Shown: positions 40,169 to 64,000, numbered from the stretch's first letter. The stretch is DNA of 64,000 bases from an uncultured Gemmatimonadaceae bacterium (GCA_963740355.1 CAVUDW010000003.1:2272001-2336000), one strand, 5' to 3'. Made by a program: numbers and translations. The notes: generated by a model not told the origin, from the sequence alone.

Positions 40169-40172
40169 GGAC

Positions 40173-45798: not shown

Positions 45799-45878
45799 GG
45801 CAAGAGCTCCGTGTTATGGCGATCGAAAGCCAATGAACGACAACAGTCTACGCGCTGTGGCGAGGCCACCCGCCCTGA

Positions 45879-46265: not shown

Positions 46266-46360
46266 GGGTCCTTCGCAGTTGGGGGGGGCAGGCTTCTGGA
46301 TCGAATGCACCATCGGTCGTACACAACCTGTCATCCGCGAGCGCCGTCATCGCCTCGCCA

Positions 46361-46729: not shown

Positions 46730-46837
46730 GACGACCTCACAGGCAGTGGCGTGGCGCGGCGACTTCAGGGCATGTTGGTGGATTCCGCCATCACACTGTG
46801 GCCCGTGACGGATGCTGGCAAGGTCGGCCCCGCTGGC

Positions 46838-47257
46838 TCACGGAGACTTCCGGAAAAGCCGCACCATCGACTCGGCGTCGATCGCACGCATCTCGACCAG
46901 CTTGAGCGATTTGACCATTTCGGCCGTGGTCGTCTTGTAGCGAAGGAAGTGCGGAGTGAGCAAATGCGCCTCATAGGCGGCGCGGCTGGCGTAGATCTCG
47001 AGAATGCGCACGTGGGTGGGATGCTCTTTCTCGATCATCGGGAAAATGGCAATCACGCCCGGTTCCAGCCGAACGGACGCTTCCGCCTCTTCCTTGAGAA
47101 TGGCCTGATACGCGTCAAGGTCGCCTGGCCCGACCTCGATCTCCGCGACGCGAACCATCGCCATCGCCTCACCGCGCTGCTCGCTTGTGGCTGCCGGATC
47201 GATGAAAAGCATTGCCATCGCGACGACTCCCACCGACGTTCGAAATTGATGCCGCAT
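46838..47257 (-). CDS. Antibiotic-biosynthesis-monooxygenase (ABM) domain protein
   Basis: SVRLEPG, ILEIY...AYEAHL.TPHF. Confidence 0.82.
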   Translation of the reverse strand: MRHQFRTSVGVVAMAMLFIDPAATSEQRGEAMAMVRVAEIEVGPGDLDAYQAILKEEAEASVRLEPGVIAIFPMIEKEHPTHVRILEIYASRAAYEAHLLTPHFLRYKTTTAEMVKSLKLVEMRAIDAESMVRLFRKSP

Positions 47258-47349
47258 TGATGTTCCGTATCGGTGCAAGGTGCGCGATGCCAGCTCTTCA
47301 TGGAAATAGAGCCGACGGCACCGACTATCGCATCACCCACCGACCGCGA

Positions 47350-48501: not shown

Positions 48502-48580
48502 GCCCTCACTCCCGGAAGTCGGTGCGTCACCTCTCGACGATCGACTATGAGTTCCCGCAGCGCGCACGCGGGTTTACCCG

Positions 48581-48694
48581 AATCCGGTGACAGTGCACTC
48601 AATAGCCGCGAAAACTGGTGACAGCGAAATCCGGTGACAGTGCACTCAATTCTTTGAATTGAGTGCACTGTCACCGGATTTCCGCTGTCACCGG
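48581..48694. repeat. REP-like palindromic repeat cluster 1
   Basis: Unit AATCCGGTGACAGTGCACTCA at 48581 and 48628, inverted at 48660-48680; perfect 27-bp hairpin 48626-48652 / 48656-48682; partial copies nearby. Confidence 0.9.
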
Positions 48695-49365
48695 AAGTCG
48701 CTCCCCTCCGCATCGCCCGAGCTCCCTCGCACCGAAGCTCGCCGCCGGAACTCCCGGCTCACGAGCGCGCAGACGACCGGCAGGATCAGCGCATAGCCCA
48801 CGATGCCAACACGCTGGAGCGGCATCTTTCCAAGCGCAGGACCGACCAGGCCAACCAGACACAGCACACCCGCAATCGCAAACCCAGCGCGTATCGCTCG
48901 GAGTCGAGGCAGGTCCTCGATAGCCATTGAGGTGCAGACGAGCGCGATTCCGAGCAGTGCATCCCACGCGGCAAGTTCCGCGGCGTAGAGCACCGACGGC
49001 CAGACCATCGTCGGCATGCCGAGCTGACGGCCCGCCGTGAGTGCGATCACGTGCACGAGCGTGGTAGTGCCTGCGAACAGCCCCGTGAACGTCAGCGCCA
49101 ACTGACCATAGACACGCCGCTCCCGCCGCGCGTCACTGGCGATCGCCGCGACCATCAGGGTGATCGCAACGGCTGAAAGGACTGTGATGACTTCCATCAG
49201 CGCGAGGATTGGATCACCGATTGGCGCCTCGAGCCCGAACTCGGCAACGCCAGCACCGAGCACCACCAGGTAGAGCGCACCAAGGGCGACGACCGTGTTC
49301 GCCGACCAACGTCCCAGCACTGCGATCTCCACGTTTACACCAAAGCAATTGACGCATGACGGCAC
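48688..49365 (-). CDS. Hypothetical 6-TM membrane protein
   Basis: Six hydrophobic helices; stop codon lies in a partial repeat unit; start uncertain. Confidence 0.7.
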   Translation of the reverse strand: MPSCVNCFGVNVEIAVLGRWSANTVVALGALYLVVLGAGVAEFGLEAPIGDPILALMEVITVLSAVAITLMVAAIASDARRERRVYGQLALTFTGLFAGTTTLVHVIALTAGRQLGMPTMVWPSVLYAAELAAWDALLGIALVCTSMAIEDLPRLRAIRAGFAIAGVLCLVGLVGPALGKMPLQRVGIVGYALILPVVCALVSREFRRRASVRGSSGDAEGSDFR

Positions 49366-49479
49366 TGCGTTCTGCAGGACCAGAACTGCACATGGGGAAC
49401 GTACGCCGACGCGCCGACCAGCACTCGCGCAGTCGCCAGCACCATCGCGGACACGCCACGCCGGGGTCGAAACTCCCTT

Positions 49480-49508
49480 TTGACAAGAAACGTTGTCAAG
49501 CCTAGAAT
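49480..49508 (+). promoter_or_regulatory. Sigma70-type promoter with overlapping palindromic operator
   Basis: TTGACA (49480) - 17 nt - TAGAAT (49503); TTGACAA-N6-TTGTCAA inverted repeat 49480-49499. Confidence 0.75.
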
Positions 49509-49514
49509 CTCCTC

Positions 49515-49685
49515 ATGCTCGCGCTCGGTTCCTTCAATATGGGCGGCGACAACAGCATGGCTGCGTTGAGCTTCTTCCACTACGGCGACCACGCCGCCGA
49601 AACCGCCGCCCGCGAGACGCCGATCTGGCAGGCGTGGATCGACGACCACTTCCCGATGCCGACGGAACCCAGTCCGAGCGCGTGA
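49515..49685 (+). pseudogene. 56-aa remnant resembling the C-terminal tail of SRPBCC-domain proteins
   Basis: MLALGSFNMGGDNSMAALSFFHYGDHAAETAARETPIWQAWIDDHFP; resemblance recalled, not searched. Confidence 0.45.
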
Positions 49686-49803
49686 ACTGGTGGCCACGGC
49701 AACGCGGTCGTGTCAACGCGACCGCGCTCCCGGGCTCCCGGTATTAGTCTGCTGAAAGGCGCCGCAAAGCCTTCCCTCACGTTTGTGACTCGCGAGTTTG
49801 CCG

Positions 49804-52245
49804 ATGCCGCTCGACCTTCGGTACGTCCTCCGTTCGCTGGCGCGCGCCAAGGTGTTCACGATCGCCGTCGTGCTCACACTGGGTCTCGGCATCGGCGCCA
49901 ACACCGCCATCTTCTCGGCGGTTCGAGGGGTCTTCCTCCGCCCGCTGCCGCACGCCGATGGCGATCGACTCATGTACCTGCGCCACCACACGGTGAATCA
50001 GGGACAGTCGAACGTCGCGTTCTCGGTGCCGGAGATCAACGACTTCCGCACGCAGTCGCGCACGATGCAGCAGATCGCGGAATACTCGCCGCTGACGCTG
50101 TCACTGATCGAGAAGACGGATGCCTCGCAGATCGACGTCGGACTCGTGACGGGCAACTACCTGAGCGTGATGGGCCTCAAGCCGATCTTGGGCCGCGGCT
50201 TCACAACGGGTGATGACGGTGCCGGGGCGGCGCCAGTCATTCTGCTCAGTAACGCATTCTGGCTGACGCATTTCAACGGCGATCCGAGCATCGTCGGAAA
50301 GACCATGCAGATCAGCAAGCGCGCCGTCGAGGTGATCGGCGTGCTCGAGCCGGCGCCGTTCTTTCCTGGCCGAATCGATGCGCTGATGAACATGTCGATC
50401 AGCGAACATCACGTCAGCGCAATGATGGTGCAGGGCCGGTCGCACCGGATGACGGAGATGATCGCGCGACTGACGCCCGGTGCGACGGTGGATCAGGCAC
50501 GCCAGGAGATCGGCATCATCACCCAGCGCAGGAACGCCCAGTATCCGGAATCGTACGAAAAGGCTGCGCAATACACGGTGGAACTGACGCCGTTCAAGGA
50601 AATCCTCGGGCGTGATGCGCGGCTCATGTTGTGGATGCTGATGGGTGTGGCGTCGCTCGTGCTGGTCATTGCCTGTGCCAATGTGGCGAACCTGACGCTG
50701 ATGCGCGGCGTGCGTCGCGAGCACGAGATGACCGTGCGCGCCGCCCTCGGCGCCGGCGCGTCGCGACTCCGTCGGTTGTTGATCGTCGAAAACCTGGTGC
50801 TCGCGGCTGGTGGAGCATTGCTTGGGCTGTTCGTCGCGTTCGCCGGTGTCGGCACGTTGTCATCCTTCGTCGCGCGGTTCTCGCCGCGCGCGAACGAAAT
50901 TCACGTCGACTGGATGGTGCTGGCGTTCACCGCGCTGCTTGCCGTGCTGATCGCGTTCCTGTTGTCCTTCGTCCCGCGCGTTGGCGCCGAGCACACACTC
51001 GGCGCGGGCCTTGCTGCCGGCAGCGTCAAGACCAGTGGCAGCGGTCGTCGCAAGCGACTGCAGCAGGCGCTCGTGATCACGCAAGTGGCGGTGTCGATGG
51101 TGCTGCTGTCCGGCGCGGGATTGCTGGTGCGCTCCATGCAGCGCCTCGCGGCGGTCGATCCGGGGCTCAACCCCAAGAACGTGCTGACGATGGAAGTACC
51201 GCCCGACTTCACGTCGGCCGACATCGGGCGCGCCGGCCAGCGGATGGAGGAGATGCAACGTGCACTGACGGCGCTGCCTGGTGTCGAGGTGGTGGGAATC
51301 GGGTCGACGGTGCCATTGCGCTCGAGCCAGATCCAGCTCGAGATCAAGGCCGAGTCGCGCACCATCGACAACGGTGCGACGCCGTCTGCGGAATATCGTA
51401 CGGCCGATCCTGGATACTTTCGCGCGGCGGGCATTCCGTTGCTCGCCGGTCGCGAATTCACGCCCGGTGATGCGGCGAAGTCCGGCAAGGTCGTGATCCT
51501 CAACAAGACACTCGCCGATCGACTCTTCGCGGATGTCGATCCGATCGGGCGTCGCGTGGCATGGACCGGTGAAGTACTGAGCTTCATCGGCATCCCGGAG
51601 AACGATTGGCGCACCGTGGTTGGTGTGATGCGCGACACGAAGGACGGCGGCCTCGATGCGAAGCCACTACCCGTCGCGTTCCTGCCGGTGGCGCAAGCCG
51701 ACTTCCCGCCCGGAGGACTCGTCATTCGCAGCACCGTCGATCCCACCGGGCTGACCAACGCAGCGCGCGCGATCGTGCGGTCGATCGCCCCGGATCAACC
51801 GATCAAGAACGTGTTGTCGCTTGAGGCCGTGCGCGACGAAAGCGTCGGCCCGAGACGGCTCAACGCATTGCTGCTGGGCGGATTCGCGCTCCTTGCCCTC
51901 GTCATCGCCGCAATCGGGATCGCCGCCGTCCTCGCGTTCAACGTGAGCGCGCGCACCAACGAGATCGGCATCCGGATGGCGCTTGGTGCGGCACCTGGGA
52001 TGGTGACGACGATGATCTTGAAGGAAGGCTTCCTGTTGGTGGGGCTCGGCCTGCTGGTCGGCGTTGCGAGTTCGCTCGCGTTGTCACGCACCATCGACAG
52101 CTTCCTGTTCGGCGTCGCCTCGCGCGATCCCGCCACGCTACTCATCGTCGCGTTGACGATGACCACGATCGGCTTGGTCGCCTGCTGGATGCCAGCGCGG
52201 CGGGCGAGCCGGATCGATCCGAGCGAGGCGTTGCGCGCGAGCTGA
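49804..52245 (+). CDS. Duplicated MacB/FtsX ABC permease (ADOP-type)
   Basis: LTLGLGIGANTAIFS, LVIACANVANL, RAALGA, EIGIRMALGA, PARRASRIDP. Confidence 0.93.
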   Translation: MPLDLRYVLRSLARAKVFTIAVVLTLGLGIGANTAIFSAVRGVFLRPLPHADGDRLMYLRHHTVNQGQSNVAFSVPEINDFRTQSRTMQQIAEYSPLTLSLIEKTDASQIDVGLVTGNYLSVMGLKPILGRGFTTGDDGAGAAPVILLSNAFWLTHFNGDPSIVGKTMQISKRAVEVIGVLEPAPFFPGRIDALMNMSISEHHVSAMMVQGRSHRMTEMIARLTPGATVDQARQEIGIITQRRNAQYPESYEKAAQYTVELTPFKEILGRDARLMLWMLMGVASLVLVIACANVANLTLMRGVRREHEMTVRAALGAGASRLRRLLIVENLVLAAGGALLGLFVAFAGVGTLSSFVARFSPRANEIHVDWMVLAFTALLAVLIAFLLSFVPRVGAEHTLGAGLAAGSVKTSGSGRRKRLQQALVITQVAVSMVLLSGAGLLVRSMQRLAAVDPGLNPKNVLTMEVPPDFTSADIGRAGQRMEEMQRALTALPGVEVVGIGSTVPLRSSQIQLEIKAESRTIDNGATPSAEYRTADPGYFRAAGIPLLAGREFTPGDAAKSGKVVILNKTLADRLFADVDPIGRRVAWTGEVLSFIGIPENDWRTVVGVMRDTKDGGLDAKPLPVAFLPVAQADFPPGGLVIRSTVDPTGLTNAARAIVRSIAPDQPIKNVLSLEAVRDESVGPRRLNALLLGGFALLALVIAAIGIAAVLAFNVSARTNEIGIRMALGAAPGMVTTMILKEGFLLVGLGLLVGVASSLALSRTIDSFLFGVASRDPATLLIVALTMTTIGLVACWMPARRASRIDPSEALRAS

Positions 52246-52266
52246 CGGCGGCGGTAGCAGTTCTAC

Positions 52267-52364
52267 AATCCGGCGACAACAAATCCGGTGACAGTGCACT
52301 CAATTCGAAATCCGGTGACAGTGCACTCATTTTCAGCTAATGAGTGCACTGTCACCGGATTTCG
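52267..52364. repeat. REP-like palindromic repeat cluster 2
   Basis: Same 21-bp unit at 52282 and 52309, inverted at 52341-52361; perfect 26-bp hairpin 52306-52331 / 52339-52364; between convergent genes. Confidence 0.9.
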
Positions 52365-52366
52365 TC

Positions 52367-52798
52367 TCACGCTACGCCCGTCTGCGCGATCGCATCCCGT
52401 ATCGCCGCCTTGAGCACATCGACATCGATGTCGCTCAGCGTCTTGAACTTGATGCAGTACCCCGTCACGCTCGCCTTGCCGAGTGTCTTGCCGTATGTGT
52501 CCGCCAGGTACTTCTTGTCCTTGAGACCCATGATGTACACGGAGACCCCGGTGGTATTGCCGCTGATACCAACCTGATAGAACTCCCGGCTGCTGCCATC
52601 GGCGTAGGTCATCATGAGATGTCCATAGCCGATGTTTGGATTGGCGACAGTGCGACCCTCGTCGTTCTTGCCGTCCAGAAACCACAATCGACAGCCTGGC
52701 ATCAATGCCTGGATGATGTCATGCAAGGCCTGAATGTCGCTACGCTTGCGTGCCGGCTGCGCGGCGATGTGGTCTGCGATCTGCTTCTTGACGTTCAT
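52367..52798 (-). CDS. DUF1801 protein
   Basis: LWFLDG, NPNIGYG, GKASVTGYCIKFK. Confidence 0.85.
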   Translation of the reverse strand: MNVKKQIADHIAAQPARKRSDIQALHDIIQALMPGCRLWFLDGKNDEGRTVANPNIGYGHLMMTYADGSSREFYQVGISGNTTGVSVYIMGLKDKKYLADTYGKTLGKASVTGYCIKFKTLSDIDVDVLKAAIRDAIAQTGVA

Positions 52799-52858
52799 GC
52801 CGCGCTCCAGTTGAAGTGGCGCATTTTCGCCGCGGCGAGATTCATGCACCCGCGAGGT

Positions 52859-53398
52859 TCAGCTCGTCTGCGGACTGGGTGGCACCGCCGCATGCAGAAA
52901 TCGGACGAACCCAATCTCGGCCGCATTTTTTGCGAGTTCGACATTCAACCACGCAACCACGTCGCCAAAGGGGCGATTCGTAAATGGCCATCGAGTCTGT
53001 GCGGCAGACGCCAAGTCCGCGTCCGTGAGCGTTTCGAGGTGATGCCGCCATCGCTCGTGGAGTTCGCCGATTCGCTGAGTGACCGCTTCAGCGCTGCCTG
53101 GCCACGGTATGTCATGACGGGTGAGCGTGCTCGGACCGTTGTTGTGCTCCACCACCATCGTCCACCAAAAACAGACATGCCAGGTGAGCCACGCAATGCT
53201 CGATGGGCCAAGTGAATAGCCTTCATGCTCCGGCCAGTCCGCCATCCACGTGCCGTCGGCGAGCTGATGGACATGCAATCCGCGCTCGGCGGGACGCCGG
53301 AGGCACTCAGCAGTGGACAAGCCGTCGAGATGATGCGCTAACAGTTTCCACGCCAGGTCAAACTGGCGAAGCAGATAGCCGCGCGCGTCCTCACTCAT
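52859..53398 (-). CDS. DinB family protein
   Basis: SIAWLTWH..FWW, WLNVELAKNAAEIG. Confidence 0.8.
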   Translation of the reverse strand: MSEDARGYLLRQFDLAWKLLAHHLDGLSTAECLRRPAERGLHVHQLADGTWMADWPEHEGYSLGPSSIAWLTWHVCFWWTMVVEHNNGPSTLTRHDIPWPGSAEAVTQRIGELHERWRHHLETLTDADLASAAQTRWPFTNRPFGDVVAWLNVELAKNAAEIGFVRFLHAAVPPSPQTS

Positions 53399-53415
53399 CG
53401 GCGCGGCGTGCGAGC

Positions 53416-53883
53416 TCACGGAGTTGGTCCATGCGTATCCCCAACTGTGCGGATCGTCCACGCACCGTCGATTAGCACGACGCTAGCGCACGCAGGGCCC
53501 CCGTCACGCGCCATGCCATCTACGGCGCCGTCGAGGACGATAGGCGGCGTCACCCCCAGCAACGCGGCGATGTCGATGGTAGCGAGTGGCACCTTCGCCC
53601 GACGGTCCCAGCCCGACATCAAATCGCCGGCACGTTTTCCCGAGTTGACGTAGACGAAGCGAGCAGCGGGCGGCCCTTGTATCGCAGTTCCACGGAGCTG
53701 CAGCGTGCCGCGCTGATTCGGCCCGAGCGTCAACGGTACCTCGAACAGCAGGCGGTCGTGGTCGACATGCACCGGCGCCAGCAACGCATCGCGGCCGAGC
53801 TGCACCGCCCAACGCACGCCCGGCGGCGGCCGCACGATGCTGAGGCGGAGGGTGACGGGAATGTCAGTCTGCGGCGCGCTCAT
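53416..53883 (-). CDS. DUF5990-like protein
   Basis: QGPPAARFVYVNSG, WDRRAKVPL, DGGPACASV. Confidence 0.7.
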   Translation of the reverse strand: MSAPQTDIPVTLRLSIVRPPPGVRWAVQLGRDALLAPVHVDHDRLLFEVPLTLGPNQRGTLQLRGTAIQGPPAARFVYVNSGKRAGDLMSGWDRRAKVPLATIDIAALLGVTPPIVLDGAVDGMARDGGPACASVVLIDGAWTIRTVGDTHGPTP

Positions 53884-54119
53884 GCGAGAACCCGACAGTC
53901 GCTGGCACAGGTCGCGCTCGGGAACATGATCTCGGTGATGCCCGGTGTGTTCGCCTTCATGGACTGTCGCCGATCTCCATGATGTTCGATGAGTACGGTC
54001 GCTCGAGATCAGCGGCAGCGGCGCTACGCAATCCACGCCGACACGCGACAAGGTACGCGCCGCGTTCTGCTGCAACAACTCGCGGGATCTCGGACGCCGA
54101 CGATGACGCGAGGCGCCAC

Positions 54120-54701
54120 TTAGCGATGCAGCGTTTCCCTTCGCTGCAGCATGGCGACGAACTCTGCGATCCGACGTGCGCGCGTCTCAGCTTTGACGGC
54201 GGCCTGAATCCGATACAGGATCGCATATCGGTTCGCGCCCTTCAGCGACTCGAAGAACACTCGCGCCTCCGGATGTGCATCGAGTGCCGCGTGCAGGTCG
54301 CTCGGCACACTCATCGTGCGCGCGGAGTCATAGGCGCGGTCCCAACGACCATCGCCCTTGGCGGCTTCCACGGCAGCACGTCCTGCAGCCTGCATCTCCC
54401 CCGCTGCAGTCAGACGCTCGACATGCTCGCGGTTCCGCTTCGACCAGGGGCTGCGCTTCTGTCGCGGCGTGAACTTCTGGAGGAAGGAATCCCCGTCGTA
54501 ACTCTTCTTCTGCCCATCGATCCAGCCGAAGCAGAGCGCGAGGTCGAGCGCTTCCGCATACGTGACGGATCGAAAGGGCGAGGCGGCCTTTGCGATCCGT
54601 AGCCAGAGCCCGGGCTCAGTGGCATGATGAACGCTGAGCCACGTGCGGAACGCGGTCGGATCAGCGAAGAGTACGATTGGGTAGTCGGTCGCCGGCGCCA
54701 C
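54120..54701 (-). CDS. YdeI/OmpD-associated protein
   Basis: ALCFGWIDG, FTPR...S.WS..N, NRYAILYRI..A.K.ETR.RRI. Confidence 0.9.
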   Translation of the reverse strand: MAPATDYPIVLFADPTAFRTWLSVHHATEPGLWLRIAKAASPFRSVTYAEALDLALCFGWIDGQKKSYDGDSFLQKFTPRQKRSPWSKRNREHVERLTAAGEMQAAGRAAVEAAKGDGRWDRAYDSARTMSVPSDLHAALDAHPEARVFFESLKGANRYAILYRIQAAVKAETRARRIAEFVAMLQRRETLHR

Positions 54702-54741
54702 GGTCAGTCACGAAAGAGGTGAGTACGGCGCACGCCAGCCC

Positions 54742-55242
54742 TCAGAGCCTTCGCTCCCAACGCCAGACCGGACCATCGTCGGGATCGACCACGTCGCCCA
54801 CGTTCACAAAACCCACCTTTTCGAGGACGCGGGTCGACGCACTCGACTCCGGAAGAGTATGCGCGACGAGCAGCCCTGCGGCAGCAGGAGCGGATTTCGC
54901 CAGTTGCACCAAGCCAGCGGCCATCGCACTGGCGATGCCTCGACCTTCTTCGCCCGGAAACGTGAAGTAGGCCAGTTCCACCGCTCCAGACGCATCTGGC
55001 CCGCTCTTGAATCCACACGAGCCGACCACGCGGCGCGATCCGCCGTCGAGCGCGAGGTATCCGCCCCACGGTGTCGACACTGGATGCGCGACGAGCATCG
55101 CTGCGGTGGCGCCGGCGATTGCGATAGTCGTCGCCTCGTGCGGCGCCAACGTGATGGCGTGCTGCTGCGCACACGACGCGGGCTCACGTGCGAGATGATC
55201 GGCGGTGTCATGGTCCAACGCGAACAGGGTCAGTTGCAGCAT
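54742..55242 (-). CDS. GNAT (RimJ/RimL-like) acetyltransferase
   Basis: VGSCGFK, VELAY, GRGIAS, STRVLEKVGF. Confidence 0.85.
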   Translation of the reverse strand: MLQLTLFALDHDTADHLAREPASCAQQHAITLAPHEATTIAIAGATAAMLVAHPVSTPWGGYLALDGGSRRVVGSCGFKSGPDASGAVELAYFTFPGEEGRGIASAMAAGLVQLAKSAPAAAGLLVAHTLPESSASTRVLEKVGFVNVGDVVDPDDGPVWRWERRL

Positions 55243-55321
55243 GCCTAAGCCTGCACCTCGTCATTACCATCCGCCAGCTCTCCCGACTCGCGCGAATCCC
55301 GATCGACGCGGGCGCCCGTCG

Positions 55322-55876
55322 TCAGCCGCGCTGGTAGTGCATGGCGACCACGCCATTACGAAGCGGCATCGACGAGACCAACTCGAGCCGTCGCGTGCTG
55401 GGGAGCCCCGTCTGATACAAGCTCGGGCCGTGACCGACGATCCTGGGGTGGACGAGGAACTGGTACTCGTCGATCAGGTCCAGACGATCCAGCTCGGTCG
55501 CGAGCGTGCCACTGCCGAGAAGCACGCCGGCGGGAGTTGCATCCTTGAGTTGCTGCACGTTCGCGCGCAGATCGCCGGCAATGTGGTGACTGTTCGCCCA
55601 GGGGAAGTCCGTGCGCGTCGACGATACGACGTACTTCGGCTTCGCATCCAGCTTGACCGCCCACTCGCGCATGCTCGGCGGCGCCGTGACGTCGCCGCGA
55701 GCGACGGCCGGCCAATGGACCTCCATCATCTCGTAGGTGACGCGGCCCCACAGCATCGCCCCGCATTCGTCCAAAAGGCGGGTGAAGAACGCGTGCGTCT
55801 CGTCGTCGGCGATCCCCTCCTGGTGGTCGACGCAGCCGTCCAGGGTGACGTTGAGGCTGAAGGTAAGAAGTCCCAT
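55322..55876 (-). CDS. Dihydrofolate reductase family (RibD C-terminal) protein; probable former cassette
   Basis: NVTLDGC, GRVTYEMM, LIDEY.F.VHP; stop TGA lies inside the GGCTGAC core-like heptamer. Confidence 0.88.
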   Translation of the reverse strand: MGLLTFSLNVTLDGCVDHQEGIADDETHAFFTRLLDECGAMLWGRVTYEMMEVHWPAVARGDVTAPPSMREWAVKLDAKPKYVVSSTRTDFPWANSHHIAGDLRANVQQLKDATPAGVLLGSGTLATELDRLDLIDEYQFLVHPRIVGHGPSLYQTGLPSTRRLELVSSMPLRNGVVAMHYQRG

Positions 55877-55939
55877 CTCGGGCTCTCAGGGTTGGGCGTT
55901 CCGCTAGAGTCTCGCGTGTCGACGAGGTCTCGTCGCAGC

Positions 55940-56046
55940 GGCTGACGGAACAGGGTTCTGTGAAGATGCGGCGGTCGGGTTTCGATCCTGAAGTTGTCCT
56001 GCTCACAATCTCCGCGCCGCTGTGTCAGCAGCAACCAGGGTGAGGC
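55940..56046 (-). repeat. Degenerate attC-like site
   Basis: GGCTGAC GGAACAGGGTTCTG...TGTCAGCAGCAACCAGG GTGAGGC: same arms as the 59-64 kb sites but with altered cores. Confidence 0.7.
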
Positions 56047-56097
56047 TGCAGTGCGACACCGAGCGCCGATTGACTGGCAGTCTTCGTGAATTCCGTT

Positions 56098-56327
56098 TTA
56101 GTCGCCGCGCTGCAAGTACTTCTCGAACACTCTCGACTCCGCTCTAGGCCCGCAGTGGTGAGCTCGACGGACTTCGCGCGACCGCGCGGATTGCAGATCA
56201 ATCCCTGCTGCTCGAGGAGTGCCAACACATCCCAGCTGTGCCCCTTCCATGCCCGATTCGTATCGTGCAACGTGAGATGTAGCAATGCAAGCACGAGTTC
56301 CGCCGCCTTCTCTTCGTCATACGACAC
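56098..56327 (-). pseudogene. DUF6429-like protein with frameshift near the 3' end
   Basis: YDEEK...LALLHL...RAWKG..W..L..L...GLI.NP...AKSV.LT..G; alternative frame gives FEKYLQRGD* ending at 56098. Confidence 0.65.
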
Positions 56328-56628
56328 ACGGCCTCCGCGATTGACCTGCTGATCGAACGACGTTCCACGACACCACTTATGGAAATGTCATTCCGCTCGC
56401 GTTGCAAGCACAACTATTTGTACAGCGCTGAACTTCGGGCTGTCGGCTGGGTGGCAGAGCGCAAAGGCGACAGAGGCGAGGCGCTGTTCGCTCTCCGCGC
56501 TGAAACTCCGGGGAATGCAAGTCCAAGGCTCGATCAGGCCGCCGCCAAGGCTTGCTCCCGCGTGGAGGTGGGACGTCGCCGGACCATGCGCGCGCTACGA
56601 CGTAGCCGCGCCCGCTGAGGGTGACGAT

Positions 56629-56676
56629 GCCCGCTACGGCGCGCGGAATCCCGTCGCACTCGAACGGCTGACCTAC
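56629..56676 (+). mobile_element. IS91-family (Y2) transposase-like remnant, fragment 1
   Basis: Encodes ARYGARNPVALERLTY; continues at 58792 through a shared 17-bp repeat. Family resemblance recalled, not searched. Confidence 0.45.
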
Positions 56677-57011
56677 AACTATCCCGACTGCCGACATCGA
56701 CACCGGAATCGAGGACCTGCACCGCATGGCTCTCCTCAATTGTTCGTCGCGTAGATGCGTGCAGGCGCGACGGCGTCGGCGACACGTCGAACAATTCCCG
56801 CGGCGACATCGAGAGCCCGACATCAGCGAGGCAGTCAGACGACGTGGTCGATGGACTGCAGCTCGCGCGAACACGGACGAGGTGCGCCAGAGTGTGGTAC
56901 ACAGACTCAGGTCACGCATGACGGGTGTACACGCATTACGCTTCCGGGGACAGCGGAGCGGTTCCCGGCCCATCGGCCCGTCAATCCTCCGTCCACACGG
57001 AGGCACGTTCC

Positions 57012-57659
57012 ATGCGACGTTTCGTATCACTCCTCGCACTGTGCGCCTGCGTTCCAGCCGCGGCGCACGCTGGTGACCTGCAGCCCGGCCACGGGATTCT
57101 CGAGTCGATCGTCAGTGACGCCCCGGGTGCGTCGGGGTTCGCCTGGCTTCTGGACGACGGGATCGGCGCGTCGAGCGGCCGTCGCACCGGCATCGCGCCC
57201 GAATTCTGCTTGGGCGTCTGCACCTACAACTTCTCGAACAGCTTTGCGAACAGCCTGCTCGCAGGGACCACGAGTTCGGGTGAGTACACGGCGTTTGCAA
57301 GTTTCGTGTTCAGCGGCCCGTCAGTCGAAGCGCGTGCATGCCCGGTGGAATGCCAGCCCGGCGCGTTTGTCTACTCGGCCACCTGGGCAGACGTCCCGAT
57401 CACCATGACGGGCCAGGTGGACCTGGCCTCGAACGTCGATCCGCGCGTGATCCTTCGCTTCGTGATCGCCGGCTCAGGCATGGCACGGGCGCAGACGTTC
57501 CTGTACCCGAATCAGCCAGCCACCTTCAGCTACCGCCAGCTTCGCTACGATTTCAGGTACGACATCGTACCAGAACCACGGGCCATCATGCTCGTGCTCG
57601 TCGGCATGATGGTGCTCGGCGCGTGGCGACTGCGCGTACGCGTGCGCGCGGCCCAGTGA
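57012..57659 (+). CDS. PEP-CTERM sorting-domain protein (paralog 1)
   Basis: Signal peptide ending AHA; C-terminal VPEP + TM helix + Arg-rich tail; 215 aa. Confidence 0.88.
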   Translation: MRRFVSLLALCACVPAAAHAGDLQPGHGILESIVSDAPGASGFAWLLDDGIGASSGRRTGIAPEFCLGVCTYNFSNSFANSLLAGTTSSGEYTAFASFVFSGPSVEARACPVECQPGAFVYSATWADVPITMTGQVDLASNVDPRVILRFVIAGSGMARAQTFLYPNQPATFSYRQLRYDFRYDIVPEPRAIMLVLVGMMVLGAWRLRVRVRAAQ

Positions 57660-58040
57660 GTCGCTGCTCGCCCCTGACCGGTCGTGTCGGTGGGCGTAGT
57701 GAATACTGGGGCTCGGGCGATTATGTGGTCGCGTTCGCACTTCCCTGACGGTCGCGCCCGCACCCTGCCCCCGTCACGCCCTTTCCGGCTGTAGAACAGC
57801 AGCGGCCGACGTGCTGGCTGCCGCCTGTGTGCAAGGGAAATGCGCACACCCGTGTTTGGGCTGTCTGGAACTTCGTTCAGAGCCAACAACCTCGAGCGAT
57901 GAACGAATGCTCTAGTCGAGTGTGGTGACGCCACGCCATCGCGGGCAGACCGCATCGACATGCGCTACGCTTCAATGACCAACATGCTCGCACGCGCACC
58001 GCGAGCCATGGCGACCACTGTCCACAAGGAGATGCTCCGC

Positions 58041-58688
58041 ATGCGACGCGTCACCGCACTTCTCGCGATCTGCGCCATCCTTCCCGTGGCGGCACATGCC
58101 GGCGATTTTCAGCCTGGCCGCGGGTTTCTGGAGTCGCTTCGGGCTCCATTGCCTCGATACGCATGGTCGATTGCCGATGGGATCTCGTTCACCGACCGTT
58201 ACGGACCCGGCATCGCGCCCGGGGATTGTGTGGGTGTCTGTCCATACAATTTCTCGAATGACTTTTGGGGGGTCACCGAATCGGGTGACTATCAGGTCCA
58301 GGTATTTCTCCACTTCAGCGGGCCGACCGTCACGGCGATCACGAGGTGCGGCCCATACGGGTGTCCGCCCGATCACGTTTTCGGCTCCTACGCGAACGAC
58401 TGGGCGGACGTCCCGATCACGTTGACAGGGGAGGTGCACCTGATCTCGCGCATAGATCCCTTCGTCATCTTCCATTACCTCATTGCAGGATCCGGGACGG
58501 CTCGGGCGGAGACGCGTCAGTTCGCGGTGAATGAGGGCGAGTCCCATGACTACAACCTGCTCCGGTACGAATTCACGTACGACGTGGTGCCGGAGCCGCG
58601 TACCGCAGCGCTGTTCCTCTTCGGCACGATCGCGATCGGTGCCACCAGCCTGACACTGCGACGTCGGCGCGGCGCGGCGCGCGCCTGA
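58041..58688 (+). CDS. PEP-CTERM sorting-domain protein (paralog 2)
   Basis: AAGGAG RBS, signal peptide ending AHA, VPEP + TM + RRRR; 215 aa; clear similarity to paralog 1. Confidence 0.88.
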   Translation: MRRVTALLAICAILPVAAHAGDFQPGRGFLESLRAPLPRYAWSIADGISFTDRYGPGIAPGDCVGVCPYNFSNDFWGVTESGDYQVQVFLHFSGPTVTAITRCGPYGCPPDHVFGSYANDWADVPITLTGEVHLISRIDPFVIFHYLIAGSGTARAETRQFAVNEGESHDYNLLRYEFTYDVVPEPRTAALFLFGTIAIGATSLTLRRRRGAARA

Positions 58689-58789
58689 TCGTGTTCGTGC
58701 GTGCGTCGCTCGCGCACCCTGACAGTGCACCGACAGATGTCGTCATTCCGCGGGCGCAGGCAGCCGCCTTGTTCACGCTGATCGGCACG

Positions 58790-58842
58790 TCGAACGGCTG
58801 ACCTACGACCGAGCCGCCACGGCGGTGACGTACCGGTCGGAG
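58790..58842 (+). mobile_element. IS91-family (Y2) transposase-like remnant, fragment 2
   Basis: Encodes ERLTYDRAATAVTYRSE; starts with TCGAACGGCTGACCTAC, identical to 56660-56676. Confidence 0.45.
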
Positions 58843-59209
58843 TGGCCGGCCTCGCAGGTTGCGAGCACCGCATCAAGATTGGCCACTCGCGACAGGTCTT
58901 TGTCGATTTTGACCGACATTGGGACTGGTGCGTAGTACGCATCACCACGACGCTGAATCGTGACACCCTTCGTGCACAAACTCGCTACCTTCCCGTCCTC
59001 AACGACGAGAATGCCTAGGTGGTCAAGGTCAAGCGTGAGCGCCTCGCAGTACCCAGCATTGAGGCGTAAAGCTCCTGCGCTAAGCGGCGCGACTCACCAG
59101 CGATCGCCGAGCGTATCAGCTGCGTGCTAGGAACGCGGCAACTCTGCGGGCGTCTGCAATCGGCGTTGACGGCGACCATTGCGCCATCTGGTGGACTTGG
59201 TTGATAGCT

Positions 59210-59305
59210 CGCTAACGAGACAGGGTTCTGCTGCAATGCGGCCACGAGATGGCCCGCCCGCTCACGATATCTCGATCGCATTGTCGGCAGCAACCGGCGT
59301 TAGGC
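59210..59305 (-). repeat. attC-like site 1
   Basis: + strand CGCTAAC GAGACAGGG TTCTGCTGCAATGCG...CGCATTGTCGGCAGCAA CCGGC GTTAGGC; 96 bp. Confidence 0.88.
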
Positions 59306-59406
59306 GCGGAAGGGGTCATGCCCGCTTCGCCCGGTACCAGAGTAGAACAGCCGCATGAACAAGCGTTGCCAAATCACGTGCGCACTGAGCCCCATCACGC
59401 AGCACG

Positions 59407-60180
59407 TTAGTACAGTCCGGCGAAGGTGTGACCCACCCAAGCGAGGCCGCGGGCGAGCGACTGACCAACGCCAGACGAGGCGCCTAGCCATGCGCTGACC
59501 TCGACAACGAGGCAGATCGCCAACGCCAGCCAGTACGCCCGGTGGACTCGCCGCTCGCGAAAAGCATCGTACCCGATGCCGCCGAGGATGAACATGTTGG
59601 TCGCCAGAATGCCTGCGGGCGTCGCCCAATCCACGGGACCGAACATCGTCATCACGATGCGAAACCCGGCAGCCCCCAGCCCGGCCGCGCCTGCCACCAG
59701 CATCAGCCGCTTGTGGATCGCGCGGTTCCTGCGCAGGACGATCGCTACGGTGTAGAAGCCGATGAAGAGCACGAGCGTCGCAAAGATCATCAGGCCGAAC
59801 GACGACCAGAAGGACGGCTCTGGCGACGCTACCGCCGCTGCCATCTGCACACCGAGAACTAGCGTGCCGGTAGCCGTCATGACCGCCGCGAGCCCGATGC
59901 TGCTCCAGCCCAGCGTGCGATGCGTGCGCACCCGCCGCGCGTGGATCAGTCCGGCCTGGAGCGGCAGGAGGAGATACCACGCGAAGAAACTCCAGCCATG
60001 GAGATGCACGGCGGGCGCGGCCGCCGGATAGGTGCCTCGGATGTTTGGGCCGAAGTACGTGAACCAGAAGCCAAGGTACGCGGTGGCACTCAAGGCCAGC
60101 GCGGTCAGCAGATAGTGCGCCTCCCGCTGCCGGGAGGGAGCGCCCACGACCACGGGCACGGCATCAGTCATGAGCGCCAT
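59407..60180 (-). CDS. Cassette gene: multi-pass membrane protein
   Basis: HLHG..F..W..L...Q..LI......HR.LG and HKRLM motifs; about 7 TM helices. Confidence 0.8.
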   Translation of the reverse strand: MALMTDAVPVVVGAPSRQREAHYLLTALALSATAYLGFWFTYFGPNIRGTYPAAAPAVHLHGWSFFAWYLLLPLQAGLIHARRVRTHRTLGWSSIGLAAVMTATGTLVLGVQMAAAVASPEPSFWSSFGLMIFATLVLFIGFYTVAIVLRRNRAIHKRLMLVAGAAGLGAAGFRIVMTMFGPVDWATPAGILATNMFILGGIGYDAFRERRVHRAYWLALAICLVVEVSAWLGASSGVGQSLARGLAWVGHTFAGLY

Positions 60181-60268
60181 ACGTCACGCAGGCGTGGGGG
60201 GGACGACACATCGGAACATCATCACGAGTGACCTGCGTGGCAAACACGAGACGTCGAGGTGAAGTAGC

Positions 60269-60412
60269 GCCAAACGAAACTGGGTTTTGCTGCACGGAGT
60301 CCTCCACGCGCGTTCCTGTTCACGTCAGGCGTCGTCGCCTCGACGGGTGAATGTCTGCGGCGACTGGACACCGTCCATACGCCCAGTCATCGGTCACCAA
60401 CCGTCGTTAGGG
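60269..60412 (-). repeat. attC-like site 2 (long, divergent)
   Basis: GCCAAAC GAAACTGGG TTTTGCTGCA...CAACCGTC GTTAGGG; 144 bp; the upstream gene's TAA lies in the core. Confidence 0.7.
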
Positions 60413-60904
60413 GGAGCCCAGAACCGGGAGCGACGGATAGAACCACGCATGTCGGATCAGTCGGTCGCGGACCTCGTAGACGACGAGGCTGGTCTGTCCA
60501 CCGACGCCGGATGACGACGCATCCCATCGTGTTCGTTCGTGCGTCGTCACCCATGGCCCCGTCGCGTCGATCGTGCGCAGCTCCGAGCGCGCTGACGGCA
60601 CGGCACGAAAGTATCCCGAGATCATCCGCCGAAACGCGTCGATGCCGCGTCCTACATCGCTCAGTGAGTCGCCAGCCACGCTCATCCACACCACGTCGCT
60701 CGCGACCACCCTCATCATGGCGTCCAGATCCTTGGCATTGAACGCCGCCACGTACGCACGGACCACCGAGATCGGCGTGGTGTCGCGCGCGCTGTTCACC
60801 GCACGCTGCGCGCCTGCGGCAGCGGTGTGGCCGAGAAGCAGGATGACAAGCAGCATGAGGCGGCCTCGCTCGAGACCATCCAAGAGACAACGTACGTGGC
60901 TCAT
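60407..60904 (-). CDS. Cassette gene: SnoaL/NTF2-like secreted protein
   Basis: YVAAFNAKDLD, GPWV..HE, VYEVRD.LI..AW.Y; ATG directly after the attC core (alternative start 60857). Confidence 0.82.
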   Translation of the reverse strand: MSHVRCLLDGLERGRLMLLVILLLGHTAAAGAQRAVNSARDTTPISVVRAYVAAFNAKDLDAMMRVVASDVVWMSVAGDSLSDVGRGIDAFRRMISGYFRAVPSARSELRTIDATGPWVTTHERTRWDASSSGVGGQTSLVVYEVRDRLIRHAWFYPSLPVLGSP

Positions 60905-60910
60905 CGCTCC

Positions 60911-61007
60911 ACCTAACGAGACAGGGTTCTGCTGCACGGCGACCGCACCTTCCTTATTCCGGGACACCAGCCGCCGGTCGCCGTGGCTGCAACAATCAGG
61001 GTTAGGC
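60911..61007 (-). repeat. attC-like site 3
   Basis: ACCTAAC GAGACAGGG TTCTGCTGCACGGCGACCG...CGGTCGCCGTGGCTGCAACAA TCAGG GTTAGGC; 97 bp. Confidence 0.88.
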
Positions 61008-61032
61008 CGCCCGCAACACGTCCCCGACTGCG

Positions 61033-61233
61033 CTACCGCTCGCGTCGGGCGAGCGCTTGGAAGAAGCTGGGGCTCTGTACCGCGTCAGTGAAGTCGATGC
61101 CAACGATCTCCCACCCATCGGCGCCGAGCTCGTTCAAGTACGCCTCCAGTGCATCTCGTTCCTTGATGCCAAAGAAACCACCGCCCTGCACGTCGTTGGT
61201 GCTGATCAACTTGTACTCCCATCGGCGCGACAT
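61033..61233 (-). CDS. Cassette gene: DUF4177-like protein
   Basis: WEYK, LNELGADGWEIV; AGGAG RBS. Confidence 0.8.
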   Translation of the reverse strand: MSRRWEYKLISTNDVQGGGFFGIKERDALEAYLNELGADGWEIVGIDFTDAVQSPSFFQALARRER

Positions 61234-61261
61234 CGAGTTCTCCTGTGTTGTTCAACTTTGC

Positions 61262-61450
61262 GCGGGCGAGCCACCCCGATGCGGCGATGTCCGCACCGTG
61301 AAGATCCGGTATCTACGGTAGAGCGTCCGCGCTGGAGATGCTTGCCGCGGGCAGATCCAGCACTTCGCTGACCCGGATGGGCAGGTCGCGGACGCAAATT
61401 TGCCCACCACACTGGTCGGGGTTCACGGTAATGGGGTCCTTGAGTTCAAC
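61262..61450 (-). pseudogene. DUF433 antitoxin-like pseudogene
   Basis: ITVNPDQCGGQICVRDLPIRVSEVLDL...; internal TAG at 61313, then IPDLHGADIAA in frame; no start codon. Confidence 0.65.
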
Positions 61451-61535
61451 GGTCTGCCGCGTGCGCCTCGCCCTGGTTGGGAAGGCTGGAAACCTGTCGT
61501 CGAACAAGAGTGCGCAACACCACAGGTGGCTGGCG

Positions 61536-61631
61536 TTCTAACGAGACAGGGTTCTGCTGCAATGCGGCTTCTTGATCCTACGCCTCCTCAACGATGGTCG
61601 GCCGCATTGTCAGCAGCAACCCGGGCTAGGT
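61536..61631 (-). repeat. attC-like site 4 (R'' core AAC>AGC)
   Basis: TTCTAAC GAGACAGGG TTCTGCTGCAATGCGGC...GCCGCATTGTCAGCAGCAA CCCGG GCTAGGT; 96 bp. Confidence 0.88.
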
Positions 61632-62220
61632 GGCTGGCGGGCTGCAGCGAGATCCGAAACCGTTTGCCGGGCGTGCCACCATGACTCTCGGGTTTGGAAA
61701 AATTTTCGACGAAAATCCCACCATTTGATTCGATCACTCGCTGGGATGCTACGTTCGCGGCATCCGTTGTGAGCTCGACGAACGGGAGGTCAAGCGACAC
61801 GAGTTCGGGCAGCAACAGCGCGAGCGCGCGCGTCGCATAGCCGCGACGCCGTTTCCATGGTACGACCGAATAGCCGATGTGTCCGAGACACGTCGGAGGG
61901 AGCGCCGTCGTTCCTGGCTGCCACCGCACATTGATGGCGCCTGAGAATTCACCGTCCCAGAGCCAGCGCGTGAAGCCAGGAAGCCGAGGCACCGACGAAC
62001 CATCCGGAAGCACAATCGCCGGTCCGCGCGCGGCGCGGTCGACTTGCGCCTCGACGAATTGCGCCGGATCCTGCGCGATGCGCGCCAACTCGTCGTGCGC
62101 GGCGTCCGCCCGTTGCGTATCCGGCGACCAACCTTGGCGGAGTGCCGCGGCGTAGCTCGGTAGAAACTCCGCGGCGGGCCAGACGAGTTCCACGGTGAAC
62201 ACGCGCAGTGGTGAAGCCAC
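61588..62220 (-). CDS. Cassette gene: GNAT acetyltransferase
   Basis: GHIGYSVVPWKRRRGYA, NVASQRVIESNGG; start GTG overlaps the attC core; 3' end reads into site 4. Confidence 0.9.
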   Translation of the reverse strand: MASPLRVFTVELVWPAAEFLPSYAAALRQGWSPDTQRADAAHDELARIAQDPAQFVEAQVDRAARGPAIVLPDGSSVPRLPGFTRWLWDGEFSGAINVRWQPGTTALPPTCLGHIGYSVVPWKRRRGYATRALALLLPELVSLDLPFVELTTDAANVASQRVIESNGGIFVENFSKPESHGGTPGKRFRISLQPASHLARVAADNAADHR

Positions 62221-62314
62221 CTAACGAGACGGGGTCCTGTTGCAATGCGACCGCACGATCGTTCTCCTGCGCACGATACCTCGGTCGCATTGTCAGCAGC
62301 AACCAGGGTTAGAC
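62219..62314 (-). repeat. attC-like site 5
   Basis: ACCTAAC GAGACGGGG TCCTGTTGCAATGCGACCG...CGGTCGCATTGTCAGCAGCAA CCAGG GTTAGAC; 96 bp. Confidence 0.9.
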
Positions 62315-62459
62315 CTCAGGCGCACGAATGCCCTCGCTCTCGACGGCGAAGTGAGCATGTGGCGATCAGCCGTACCCACACGTTGCCACAACCTTCCGCC
62401 GCCCAGCTATTGCCGCTGAACTAGTGAGCGGCGCCTTGACCGCGATCCGTTGCCAGCGG

Positions 62460-62807
62460 CTAGAGGTCCCACCCGAGGAAATGACGGACGTCATCTATGG
62501 CGTCGTAGGCGTGCCCAGAGACGTAGGTGTCCGGATCCAGGAGGGCCGAACGGAGGAATGGTTCCACACGCGCCCGGTCCAACTGCCCGAAACGCCGCGC
62601 AAGATGCCCAAAGCCCAGGATGGCGTTCCCCCGCACGTTGAAGTGGGAGTGCGCAGCCAGCCGGAGACAGACTCCCTGAGTCCACTCCAGATTGTCCGAG
62701 TACAGCGATGCGGCAACCGGCACGTAGAGCAACTCTGCCGGGTCATCCCGCAGGATCGCCGCTTCTGCGGCTGCTTCACCGAGAAAATCGAGTGACTCGT
62801 ACTGCAT
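62460..62807 (-). CDS. Cassette gene: small HEAT-like hypothetical protein
   Basis: 115 aa; H.NVRGNAILGFGHLARRF, AL.DPD.YV; sole ORF filling the cassette in array orientation. Confidence 0.75.
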   Translation of the reverse strand: MQYESLDFLGEAAAEAAILRDDPAELLYVPVAASLYSDNLEWTQGVCLRLAAHSHFNVRGNAILGFGHLARRFGQLDRARVEPFLRSALLDPDTYVSGHAYDAIDDVRHFLGWDL

Positions 62808-62829
62808 GGAAGCAATGAGCTTTGCTGAG

Positions 62830-62925
62830 GTCTAACGAGACAGGGTTCTGCTGCAATGCGACCGCACGTTCCTTCTCCTGCTCACGGCACCCCGGTCGCA
62901 TTGTCAGCAGCCACCCGGGTTTGGC
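62830..62925 (-). repeat. attC-like site 6
   Basis: GTCTAAC GAGACAGGG TTCTGCTGCAATGCGACCG...CGGTCGCATTGTCAGCAGCCA CCCGG GTTTGGC; 96 bp. Confidence 0.9.
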
Positions 62926-62950
62926 GGCCGCGCAAACGCTCGCGGCTTGA

Positions 62951-63493
62951 TCAATCGCAGTCGCTATACCCGGTGTGGCGGCCGCAGTGCAAACAGCGAA
63001 AGATATAGGCCACGGGACTACCCGATGCGTCCATCTCCGCGAACCACGATTCCCAGTCGCTGCCCGACATCTCTGACTCGCGTCGAAGGTCCGGAATCGC
63101 GTCCGGGAAGCGCGTGACGATCTCCTCTTGCCCGGCTGTGCCGAGGTATGCAGCGGCGTCGCCGCAGCAGACGGCCCAACGCTCCTGCTGCCATCCACTG
63201 AACCCGGGCGTTCGAAATGCGACCTCAGCGATCACGTCCGCGGAAGCTACCGGCCAAATGCCGCCGCCAATGCCGTCTGAGTCGGTGCACTCCGCATCAA
63301 ACATCTCGTGTACGGAGCCATCGGCGATACACCACGGACATACCGTGCCATGCAGTTCGTCCACGGCGTAGACCGGGCCGACGTACATAAACCCGCGCAC
63401 CCGATGGCAGCACCGACATGTGTCGCGAGATTGGACAATGCTTCCGGTCGCAATCGGATCCGGATGATGACGGAACGTAGGCAATGCTTCCAC
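62951..63493 (-). CDS. Cassette gene: CbrC (UPF0167) family protein
   Basis: LPTFRHHPDP..TG, CPWCIADG, RTPGFSGWQQE.W, YIFRCLHCG; start probably GTG 63493. Confidence 0.85.
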   Translation of the reverse strand: MEALPTFRHHPDPIATGSIVQSRDTCRCCHRVRGFMYVGPVYAVDELHGTVCPWCIADGSVHEMFDAECTDSDGIGGGIWPVASADVIAEVAFRTPGFSGWQQERWAVCCGDAAAYLGTAGQEEIVTRFPDAIPDLRRESEMSGSDWESWFAEMDASGSPVAYIFRCLHCGRHTGYSDCD

Positions 63494-63520
63494 GGGTGCG
63501 CTGCTCAATGATGACTGACC

Positions 63521-63616
63521 GCCTAACGAAACTGGGTTCGGCTGCAATGCGACCGCGCGATCCTTCTCCTGCTCACGATAGCCCGGTCGCATTGTCAGCA
63601 GCAACCCGGGTTAGGG
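63521..63616 (-). repeat. attC-like site 7
   Basis: GCCTAAC GAAACTGGG TTCGGCTGCAATGCGACCG...CGGTCGCATTGTCAGCAGCAA CCCGG GTTAGGG; 96 bp. Confidence 0.9.
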
Positions 63617-63688
63617 CGCACGCTCACGTCCTGCCACACGATCCGCCCCCCCGGCGCCTGCCGCGTAATCGCCCGCCAGCGTCGAGGC

Positions 63689-64000
63689 TCACTGCAGTCG
63701 CCTCTGCAGATCAATGACGGATGCACGCCACGCATCGCCTTCGTCCGACTCAGCCCACAACTCCGCCAGCTCCGAACTTTCGAGCACCAGCGCCACTGCG
63801 CGGCGCGTGTTTTCCACGAGCTCGTCGCCAAGGTCAAACCCGGCCAGTTTTCGCACGTACGCGGCAACATCCGGAGGCAGGTCCAAGGAAGGTCGGCCAC
63901 GGATACCGGCGATGATCTCCGCGGCAGCCAACCCTTCCTCGCATACGGGGGCTTCGAGATAATCGGGCGCGAGATCCAAGATCGCTTGAACCGCGACTCC
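63689..64000 (-). CDS. Cassette gene: DUF4259-like protein (5' end outside window)
   Basis: LAAAEIIA, SELAELW.ES, W...V.DL..RL; frame open to the window edge. Confidence 0.75.
   Translation of the reverse strand, partial: GVAVQAILDLAPDYLEAPVCEEGLAAAEIIAGIRGRPSLDLPPDVAAYVRKLAGFDLGDELVENTRRAVALVLESSELAELWAESDEGDAWRASVIDLQRRLQ

Follow-up and report, generated by a model that had tools for sequence, protein, structure and literature searches.

The integrase-distal end of a very likely complete sedentary chromosomal integron with an inverted integrase in a Gemmatimonadaceae genome

Introduction

Integrons in which the integrase is inverted, so that its gene runs in the same direction as the cassettes, are described for certain Treponema species by Cury et al. 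2016 (PMC4889954), where the IntI proteins of this group appear as paraphyletic, and the inverted layout is also found in PMC13323075. Gemmatimonadota are listed among the integron-bearing phyla by Ghaly et al. 2021 (PMC8618304). For Gemmatirosa kalamazoonesis KBS708 (1.1-Mb replicon) more than 10 attC sites are reported in PMC9024848, where more than 10 attC sites is also the threshold for a sedentary chromosomal integron. Integrons in this phylum and the inverted layout are both already known, and a search of main texts found no paper joining Gemmatimonas, integron, and gene cassettes; the two papers found that join integrons and attC with Gemmatimonadetes deal, judging by their titles, with clinical isolates and with beta-lactamases of Antarctic soil, not with this element. 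Here, a stretch of 64,000 nucleotides from an uncultured Gemmatimonadaceae bacterium (the window) was analyzed, whose last 4.8 kb carry an array of attC sites and gene cassettes. This array is very likely the part farthest from the integrase in a complete sedentary chromosomal integron.

The window corresponds to C3:2272001-2336000 of genome G000, which comprises 5.45 Mb in 5 contigs with a G+C content of 65%; contig C3 is 2.58 Mb long. Coordinates above 64000 are window-equivalent, meaning the C3 coordinate minus 2272000. The element is ordinary though well preserved, and its host is a Gemmatimonas-like soil or water bacterium.

Results

Organization of the integron

Along the minus strand, in order of falling coordinates, the locus consists of intI (72193-71144), a 278-bp spacer, a candidate attI, and about 16 cassette intervals. 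Each interval is made up of a minus-strand gene without its own promoter followed by an attC site of about 97 nt, with the last good site at 59210 and a dead relic at 55942. All 17 sites of the array belong to one family (16 were detected by the covariance model R1 and the seventeenth by nhmmer only), which exceeds the sedentary threshold, and the G+C content of the array is close to the genome value. Since further sites, the candidate attI, and an intact intI all lie beyond 64000, the window is read as the integrase-distal end of the array. The layout is of the inverted-integrase type, with intI co-directional with the cassettes. An earlier reading of the window by a model from its sequence (the first-pass annotation) had proposed the distal end of a longer array with attI and intI, if any, beyond 64000. 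This agrees with the nine additional sites at 64111-69783, the candidate attI at 70860-70866, and intI at 71144-72193, whereas the divergent orientation that it had expected of intI proved wrong.

Structure of the attC family

Six well-formed attC hairpins of one family, each about 97 nt, were identified in the last 4.8 kb of the window, at 59210, 60911, 61536, 62218, 62830, and 63521. The 23-nt left arm taken from 59212-59234 occurred in six copies with at most 3 mismatches, all on the plus strand, with an expectation of 0.00 in 100 shuffles. R1, which was built from 14 aligned copies of the array (six in the window and eight beyond), scored the six sites at 88.8-109.5 bits with E-values of 1e-22 to 1e-27. 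Two of the six were also folded as single-stranded DNA and compared with 200 shuffles per site, yielding z -4.69 for 63521-63620 and z -3.69 for 62830-62928, with 0/200 shuffles as good in either case.

The consensus has a CTAAC/GTTAG box of 5 bp and an unpaired spacer. Its stem measures about 22 bp and bulges two bases (C, then T) on the 3' arm of the plus strand, with 6 paired bases between them. Across the 14 copies, 91.2% of the 377 cells were paired and compensatory changes occurred in 5 pairs. The observed pairing and covariation were matched by 0/500 shuffles, and pairing dropped to 20-48% when the partners were slid by 1-3 columns. Identity was 81.5% in the arms and 55.6% in the centre, while the core box on the cleaved side, CTAACG, was invariant in 14/14 aligned sites. 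R1 is strand-specific, as sites with 92-113 bits on the plus strand reached only 14-35 bits on the opposite strand.

According to PMC5027507, the recombined bottom strand of attC carries the AAC triplet in R', and its extrahelical bases are found near L'' in the opposite arm; the first of these is usually G and the last a conserved T, with a 6-bp stem between the two, and the unpaired spacer is usually 5-6 nt on each arm. The sites of the array match the definition of attC by their RYYYAAC/GTTRRRY cores, the unpaired spacer, extrahelical bases opposite the AAC arm, and the variable centre. Because CTAAC lies on the 5' arm of the plus strand and the two bulged bases on its 3' arm, the plus strand is taken as the recombined bottom strand. 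The minus-strand genes are therefore on the top strand, in the canonical gene-to-attC polarity.

The observation of the first-pass annotation within the window was confirmed. All seven of its intergenic palindromes are present, the genes between them are on the minus strand, the stop codon at 60407 does lie inside a core, and the near-identical arms with variable centres as well as the two unpaired stem bases 6 nt apart are seen in the 14-copy alignment and the consensus structure, respectively. Its six near-identical sites stand; the seventh (60270-60412) is aberrant, being 143 nt long with only the left arm of the family, and the relic at 55942 was not on its list. The attC and gene-cassette architecture that it had put forward is supported by structure, covariation, clustering, and the complementarity of cassette ends.

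Integrase and candidate attI

The open reading frame (ORF) of intI was located on the minus strand at 71144-72193, about 7 kb past the end of the window; its frame is open (374 aa) and has no stops. Its match to TIGR02249 (C3:2343237-2344169, minus strand) reached 386.2 bits against a cut-off of 265 and is the only place in the genome above the cut-off; four other matches, at two further loci, scored 36-87 bits. IntI aligned with VchIntIA (2A3V) unbroken over residues 11-318 with 257.6 bits, whereas Xer structures matched it in two pieces only and skipped approximately residues 185-252, the integron-specific segment. The alignment to 2A3V thus covers the integron-specific insertion that the first-pass annotation had anticipated for an IntI-type recombinase. 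Motif blocks of the RHR-H-Y type are visible in the structure alignment, and the tryptophan aligned with VchIntIA W219, which we take to be the contact of an extrahelical base, is conserved.

The 3' end of intI faces the candidate attI, and about 1.35 kb separate the intI stop at 71144 from the nearest attC (69682-69790). The candidate attI at 70860-70866 follows the intI stop by 278 nt and reads ...TATAATTCTCG|TTAGAC... on the minus strand; it has the core TCTCGTTAG in common with the attC sites, after which the first cassette begins. Of 12 relatives examined, 9 have the core AAT-n3-CGTTAG at 220-418 nt beyond the intI match, as does this genome, and the sequences diverge past this core. Lying at the expected junction, the conserved core is taken to be the candidate attI.

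In the proposed mechanism, the plus strand of each attC would fold to a hairpin whose 5' arm bears AAC; the opposite arm would carry the extrahelical C and T, separated by 6 bp. IntI would cut this strand at AA|C, and the cut attC would be exchanged with a double-stranded attI or another attC. Cassettes would be inserted at attI and excised as circles, with the attI crossover predicted between A70865 and C70866 of the plus strand.

The 278-bp spacer between intI and attI of this genome's locus contained no terminator-like hairpin and no sigma-70-like promoter. It is possible, although we regard it as unlikely, that intI transcripts in this clade extend across attI and on into the cassettes. 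Grounds for this mode of cassette transcription are the spacer just described and the shared direction of intI and array, which was seen in all relatives with attC matches. Under read-through transcription, cassette expression would rise and fall with integrase expression.

Copies of the family across the genome

The genome scan with R1 returned 38 matches at E <= 0.1, ten of which were weak opposite-strand echoes, leaving 28 distinct sites. Sixteen of these lie inside C3:2327935-2341790 (14 kb), all on the plus strand. The other 12 sites are spread over eight loci without intI, and many have mutated cores. Two outlying groups show cassette-like spacing, with three sites at C3:732705-734237 and two at C2:1978282-1978925 (group spacings of 536-790 nt); further copies occur at C2:1431611-1434657 and as five single sites. 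The outlying copies are CALIN-like (clusters of attC sites lacking an integrase) or lone sites. This likeness applies to the clustered outlying copies, while the window array differs from a CALIN and is not considered one because it is attached to the integrase and the candidate attI.

Twelve copies elsewhere in the genome would also be expected of a dispersed repeat resembling repetitive extragenic palindromes (REP) or miniature inverted-repeat transposable elements (MITE), and the sites would fold in RNA too, as expected of transcript hairpins that only happen to be close to a gene for a tyrosine recombinase. Such an explanation can be given almost no credence, as 16 of the 28 copies are concentrated in one 14-kb stretch, in one orientation and ending at intI, and the core boxes, bulge geometry, and cassette-end complementarity fit attC. 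Scattering of the repeat over the genome in random orientation, named by the first-pass annotation as the outcome that would speak against attC sites, was not seen. Furthermore, no T-run terminators were seen and no Rfam family matched the 20-kb locus at E <= 0.1. A true dispersed hairpin of the same genome also differs from the array. This unrelated repeat (48585-48690 and 52280-52365) forms a near-perfect hairpin of about 25 bp on a AAATCCGGTGACAGTGCACTCA half-site, with an extra direct half-site just upstream and 36 half-sites (<=2 mismatches) on the two contigs C2 and C3. In contrast to the attC family, the AAATCCGGTGACAGTGCACTCA hairpin behaves like a REP-type dispersed element.

Related genomes and chromosomal position

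IntI above the family cut-off was found in 33 of 41 sampled genomes of the order, this genome included. The nearest IntI relatives are at most 76% identical and all belong to Gemmatimonadaceae, Gemmatimonas, or Gemmatimonadales assemblies. Loci of relatives were searched with R1 at E <= 0.001, which covered 55 of 80 loci as 25 mostly short loci were left out. Matches occurred in 22 of the 55 loci; in each of these they lie on the downstream side of intI, oriented relative to it as in this genome. In seven genomes (G001, G005, G012, G014, G022, G025, and G038), two to four intI matches were detected, some with internal stops or truncated, which suggests that multiple or decaying integrons are common in this order.

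The flank on the intI side encodes a methyltransferase, a cation efflux protein, a TIM-barrel protein, DUF6929, and DsbA, and is 73-75% identical over 3.1-7.5 kb with the loci L018, L019, and L021. Array matches to these flank-sharing relatives were limited to the GNAT interval (L018) and part of the first cassette (L019, 85%). The GNAT cassette 61588-62220 was 78% identical over 712 nt to L018 19411-20070 (blastn), where it occupies a different position. A fixed chromosomal position is thereby supported on the intI side, and the cassette content differs among related species; the first-pass annotation had proposed an absence of such variation as a sign against an integron. L018 (G041:C5:1022376-1041472; IntI 72% identical) carries the same attC family, with 16 sites (11981-20715) in the 10 kb that follow intI. 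Its array is longer than this one, because matches to the relic site continue there for at least 22 kb.

Synteny was not found on the low-coordinate side of the array, where a probe of window positions 40000-59200 against the genomes behind L018, L022, and L046 gave scattered matches only, so that the far end is not fixed. Together with the two to four intI copies or fragments of some relatives, this would suit a mobile array, carried for example by a transposon, plasmid, or island. We consider this very improbable in view of the ordinary genes of the intI-side flank and their synteny in three related genomes. No transposase was present among the seven flank ORFs scanned, all of which are ordinary genes, and the 17 sites of one family with a G+C content near that of the genome likewise argue for a sedentary chromosomal integron.

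Cassettes and their content

The two ends of each cassette retain a relationship. In adjacent pairs of sites (n=15), bases past one site were complementary, at 7.8 of 11 positions, to those in front of the next site on the intI side, compared to 5.24 of 11 for non-adjacent pairs (standard deviation 1.47, n=240; one-sided Mann-Whitney p = 1.3e-7). Such a trace is what circles carrying an entire attC would leave once opened at G|TT.

Twelve of the 16 intervals from attI to 59210 contained a minus-strand ORF above the Pfam cut-off: DUF433 with DUF2071, DUF4177, DUF6933, GNAT (twice), glyoxalase, PF00144 serine hydrolase, DUF4262, DUF4259, UPF0167, DUF433-like with DUF4177, and SnoaL. Three others held unannotated minus-strand ORFs only, and one was empty (120 nt) and adjoins a truncated site. 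Two alternative plus-strand ORFs searched against Pfam gave nothing. The PF00144 protein scored 92.8 against a cut-off of 415 for class C beta-lactamases and 123.8 against 266 for AmpH in NCBIfam; as these scores are far below the cut-offs, it is regarded as a beta-lactamase-fold hydrolase and nothing more specific. In a defence scan of 17 cassette proteins with PADLOC, only the DUF6933 protein matched, weakly, to the unnamed candidate PDC-S63 (E 6e-7). Sites and cassette genes are listed in Table 1.

Table 1. Attachment sites and cassette genes of the array, with the relic and its neighbouring gene
Feature	Position	Strand	Evidence and remarks
Decayed attC relic	55935..56053	+	R1 38.2 bits; fold z -0.08
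DUF6429 gene adjoining the relic	56025..56327	-	PF20008, E 9e-25
attC, last well-formed of the array	59205..59312	+	R1 92.6 bits; source of the 23-nt left-arm pattern
Cassette ORF, 257 aa	59407..60180	-	No Pfam, NCBIfam, or PADLOC match
Aberrant attC, 143 nt	60270..60412	+	Left arm of the family; right arm shortened, centre replaced
SnoaL-like cassette gene	60407..60904	-	Pfam PF12680, E 1.3e-14; stop codon inside the core of 60270-60412
attC	60906..61014	+	R1 88.8 bits
DUF4177 cassette gene, 66 aa	61033..61233	-	PF13783, E 1.5e-6, 28.8 bits vs cut-off 25
Small DUF433-like gene, 64 aa, same cassette as DUF4177 (61033..61233)	61313..61507	-	PF04255, E 1.9e-6, 28 bits vs 23.6
attC	61531..61638	+	R1 102.8 bits
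GNAT acetyltransferase cassette gene	61588..62220	-	PF13302 and PF00583
attC	62214..62321	+	R1 107.2 bits
Cassette ORF, 115 aa	62460..62807	-	HEAT_2 only sub-threshold, 21.3 bits vs 27.7
attC	62825..62932	+	R1 108.5 bits
UPF0167 cassette gene	62951..63604	-	PF03691, E 3e-52; true start probably near 63510, domain begins at residue 41 of the longest ORF
attC	63516..63623	+	R1 109.5 bits; fold z -4.69
DUF4259 cassette gene, cut by the window end, continues to 64087	63689..64000	-	PF14078, E 3.5e-24 (L007 10689-11087)
Nine attC sites beyond the window	64111, 64698, 66108, 66844, 67574, 67774, 68395, 68971, 69687	+	nhmmer and R1

Distal end of the array

The relic carries mutations in both core triplets and has lost its fold. 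The adjoining DUF6429 gene is probably a fossil cassette, since its position relative to the relic fits the gene-then-attC order of the array. It belongs to a tight row of minus-strand genes at 52859-56327 (DinB_2, DUF5990, OmdA/YdeI, GNAT, an unannotated ORF, and DUF6429). The idea that these genes are old cassettes whose sites were lost was unsupported, as their gaps of about 40 nt are without attC, and a row of unrelated genes is also possible.

The 3.1 kb between the relic and the last good site (56050-59210) contain broken minus-strand frames and two paralogous genes on the plus strand. These tandem paralogues at 56925-57659 and 57960-58688 (244 and 242 aa) have no Pfam family, show a signal-peptide-like N-terminus, and are oriented opposite to the cassettes. 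Their C-termini (VPEP, a hydrophobic stretch, and arginines) resemble what we take to be a PEP-CTERM sorting signal. Also in this region, a 50-nt stretch at 58792-58841 occurs in more than 10 places of the genome behind L046 with 80-95% identity. In this genome it is single-copy except for a weak match of 27 nt on another contig, and its 20-nt core recurs near 56660 (56629-56679). It was rejected as a second attC type, as it is single-copy here and has no stable fold, and may represent a conserved part of some multi-copy gene.

Discussion

Several observations weigh against an intact and typical integron at this locus. At the aberrant site 60270-60412, nhmmer matched the left arm only (E 3e-4), the R1 scan of the window did not report the site at E <= 1, and the fold was poor (z -1.88, 8/200 shuffles as good). 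Site 66844 is without part of one arm, site 67574 is truncated, and the GTT-side core is changed in 4 of the 14 aligned sites. The geometry also departs from the usual one, as C instead of G stands in the first extrahelical position and the two sides of the unpaired spacer are uneven, with about 6 nt versus 2. Both strands were about equally stable in the two sites folded on both, so the choice of strand rests on geometry and not on energy. The search of relatives with R1, a family-specific model, gave no match in 33 of the 55 loci at E <= 0.001, and a sigma-70-like promoter near intI and attI was not found in L007 17500-19600, where one promoter type was scanned. A search of public reads listed one sediment-metagenome run with 8% of the sampled words, and no RNA data set; in this run the 20-kb locus was covered by short contigs only that are uninformative on excision or expression. 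No recombination joints occurred in the short contigs of that one run, and no recombination event was observed.

Given the damaged sites at 60270, 66844, and 67574 and the changed GTT-side cores, the array may in part be frozen. An integron that is genuine but fossil today, with an array no longer recombined and sites slowly decaying in place, would account for these, for the relic at 55942, for the mutated cores of many of the 12 sites outside the array, and for the joints absent from the sole run found. We nevertheless regard this as distinctly unlikely: intI is intact and of full length with its catalytic blocks present, CTAACG on the cleaved side is unchanged in every aligned site, complementarity between cassette ends is still detectable, and the array content is unlike that of relatives with a common flank. 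Continuing recombination, which we infer, would fit these features of a sedentary chromosomal integron.

General knowledge of integrons is unchanged by this element. It does provide a complete and contiguous inverted-type chromosomal integron in Gemmatimonadaceae, with intI, a candidate attI, and 17 sites, and a family-specific attC model with which arrays were also detected in related genomes, in an order where integron integrases are very common (33/41 sampled genomes). These are useful for linking cassette metagenomes of soil and freshwater to their hosts and for studying cassette expression in inverted integrons. If read-through were true, its logic would differ from the divergent Pint/Pc pair of classical integrons, and the frequent intI would make Gemmatimonadales a natural model for read-through cassette expression.

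Comparison with known integrons

The Gemmatirosa KBS708 array, compared by description only, is similar in belonging to the same phylum and in being large. The inverted integrons of Treponema share the same orientation of intI and attC, which was likewise observed in 22 of 22 relatives' loci with matches; they belong to another phylum, and the likeness drawn here is one of layout. The superintegron of Vibrio cholerae, with V. cholerae repeats (VCR) and VchIntIA, differs in several respects, as intI is here co-directional with the cassettes with its 3' end towards attI, the array is short (17 sites) and its attC sequence family is unrelated, and the first extrahelical base is C rather than G next to a lopsided spacer. 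Both systems nonetheless have an IntI with the integron-specific insert that aligns over its full length, a long array of one homogeneous attC family, small and mostly promoterless cassettes, many of unknown function, and a bottom-strand geometry with two extrahelical bases 6 bp apart.

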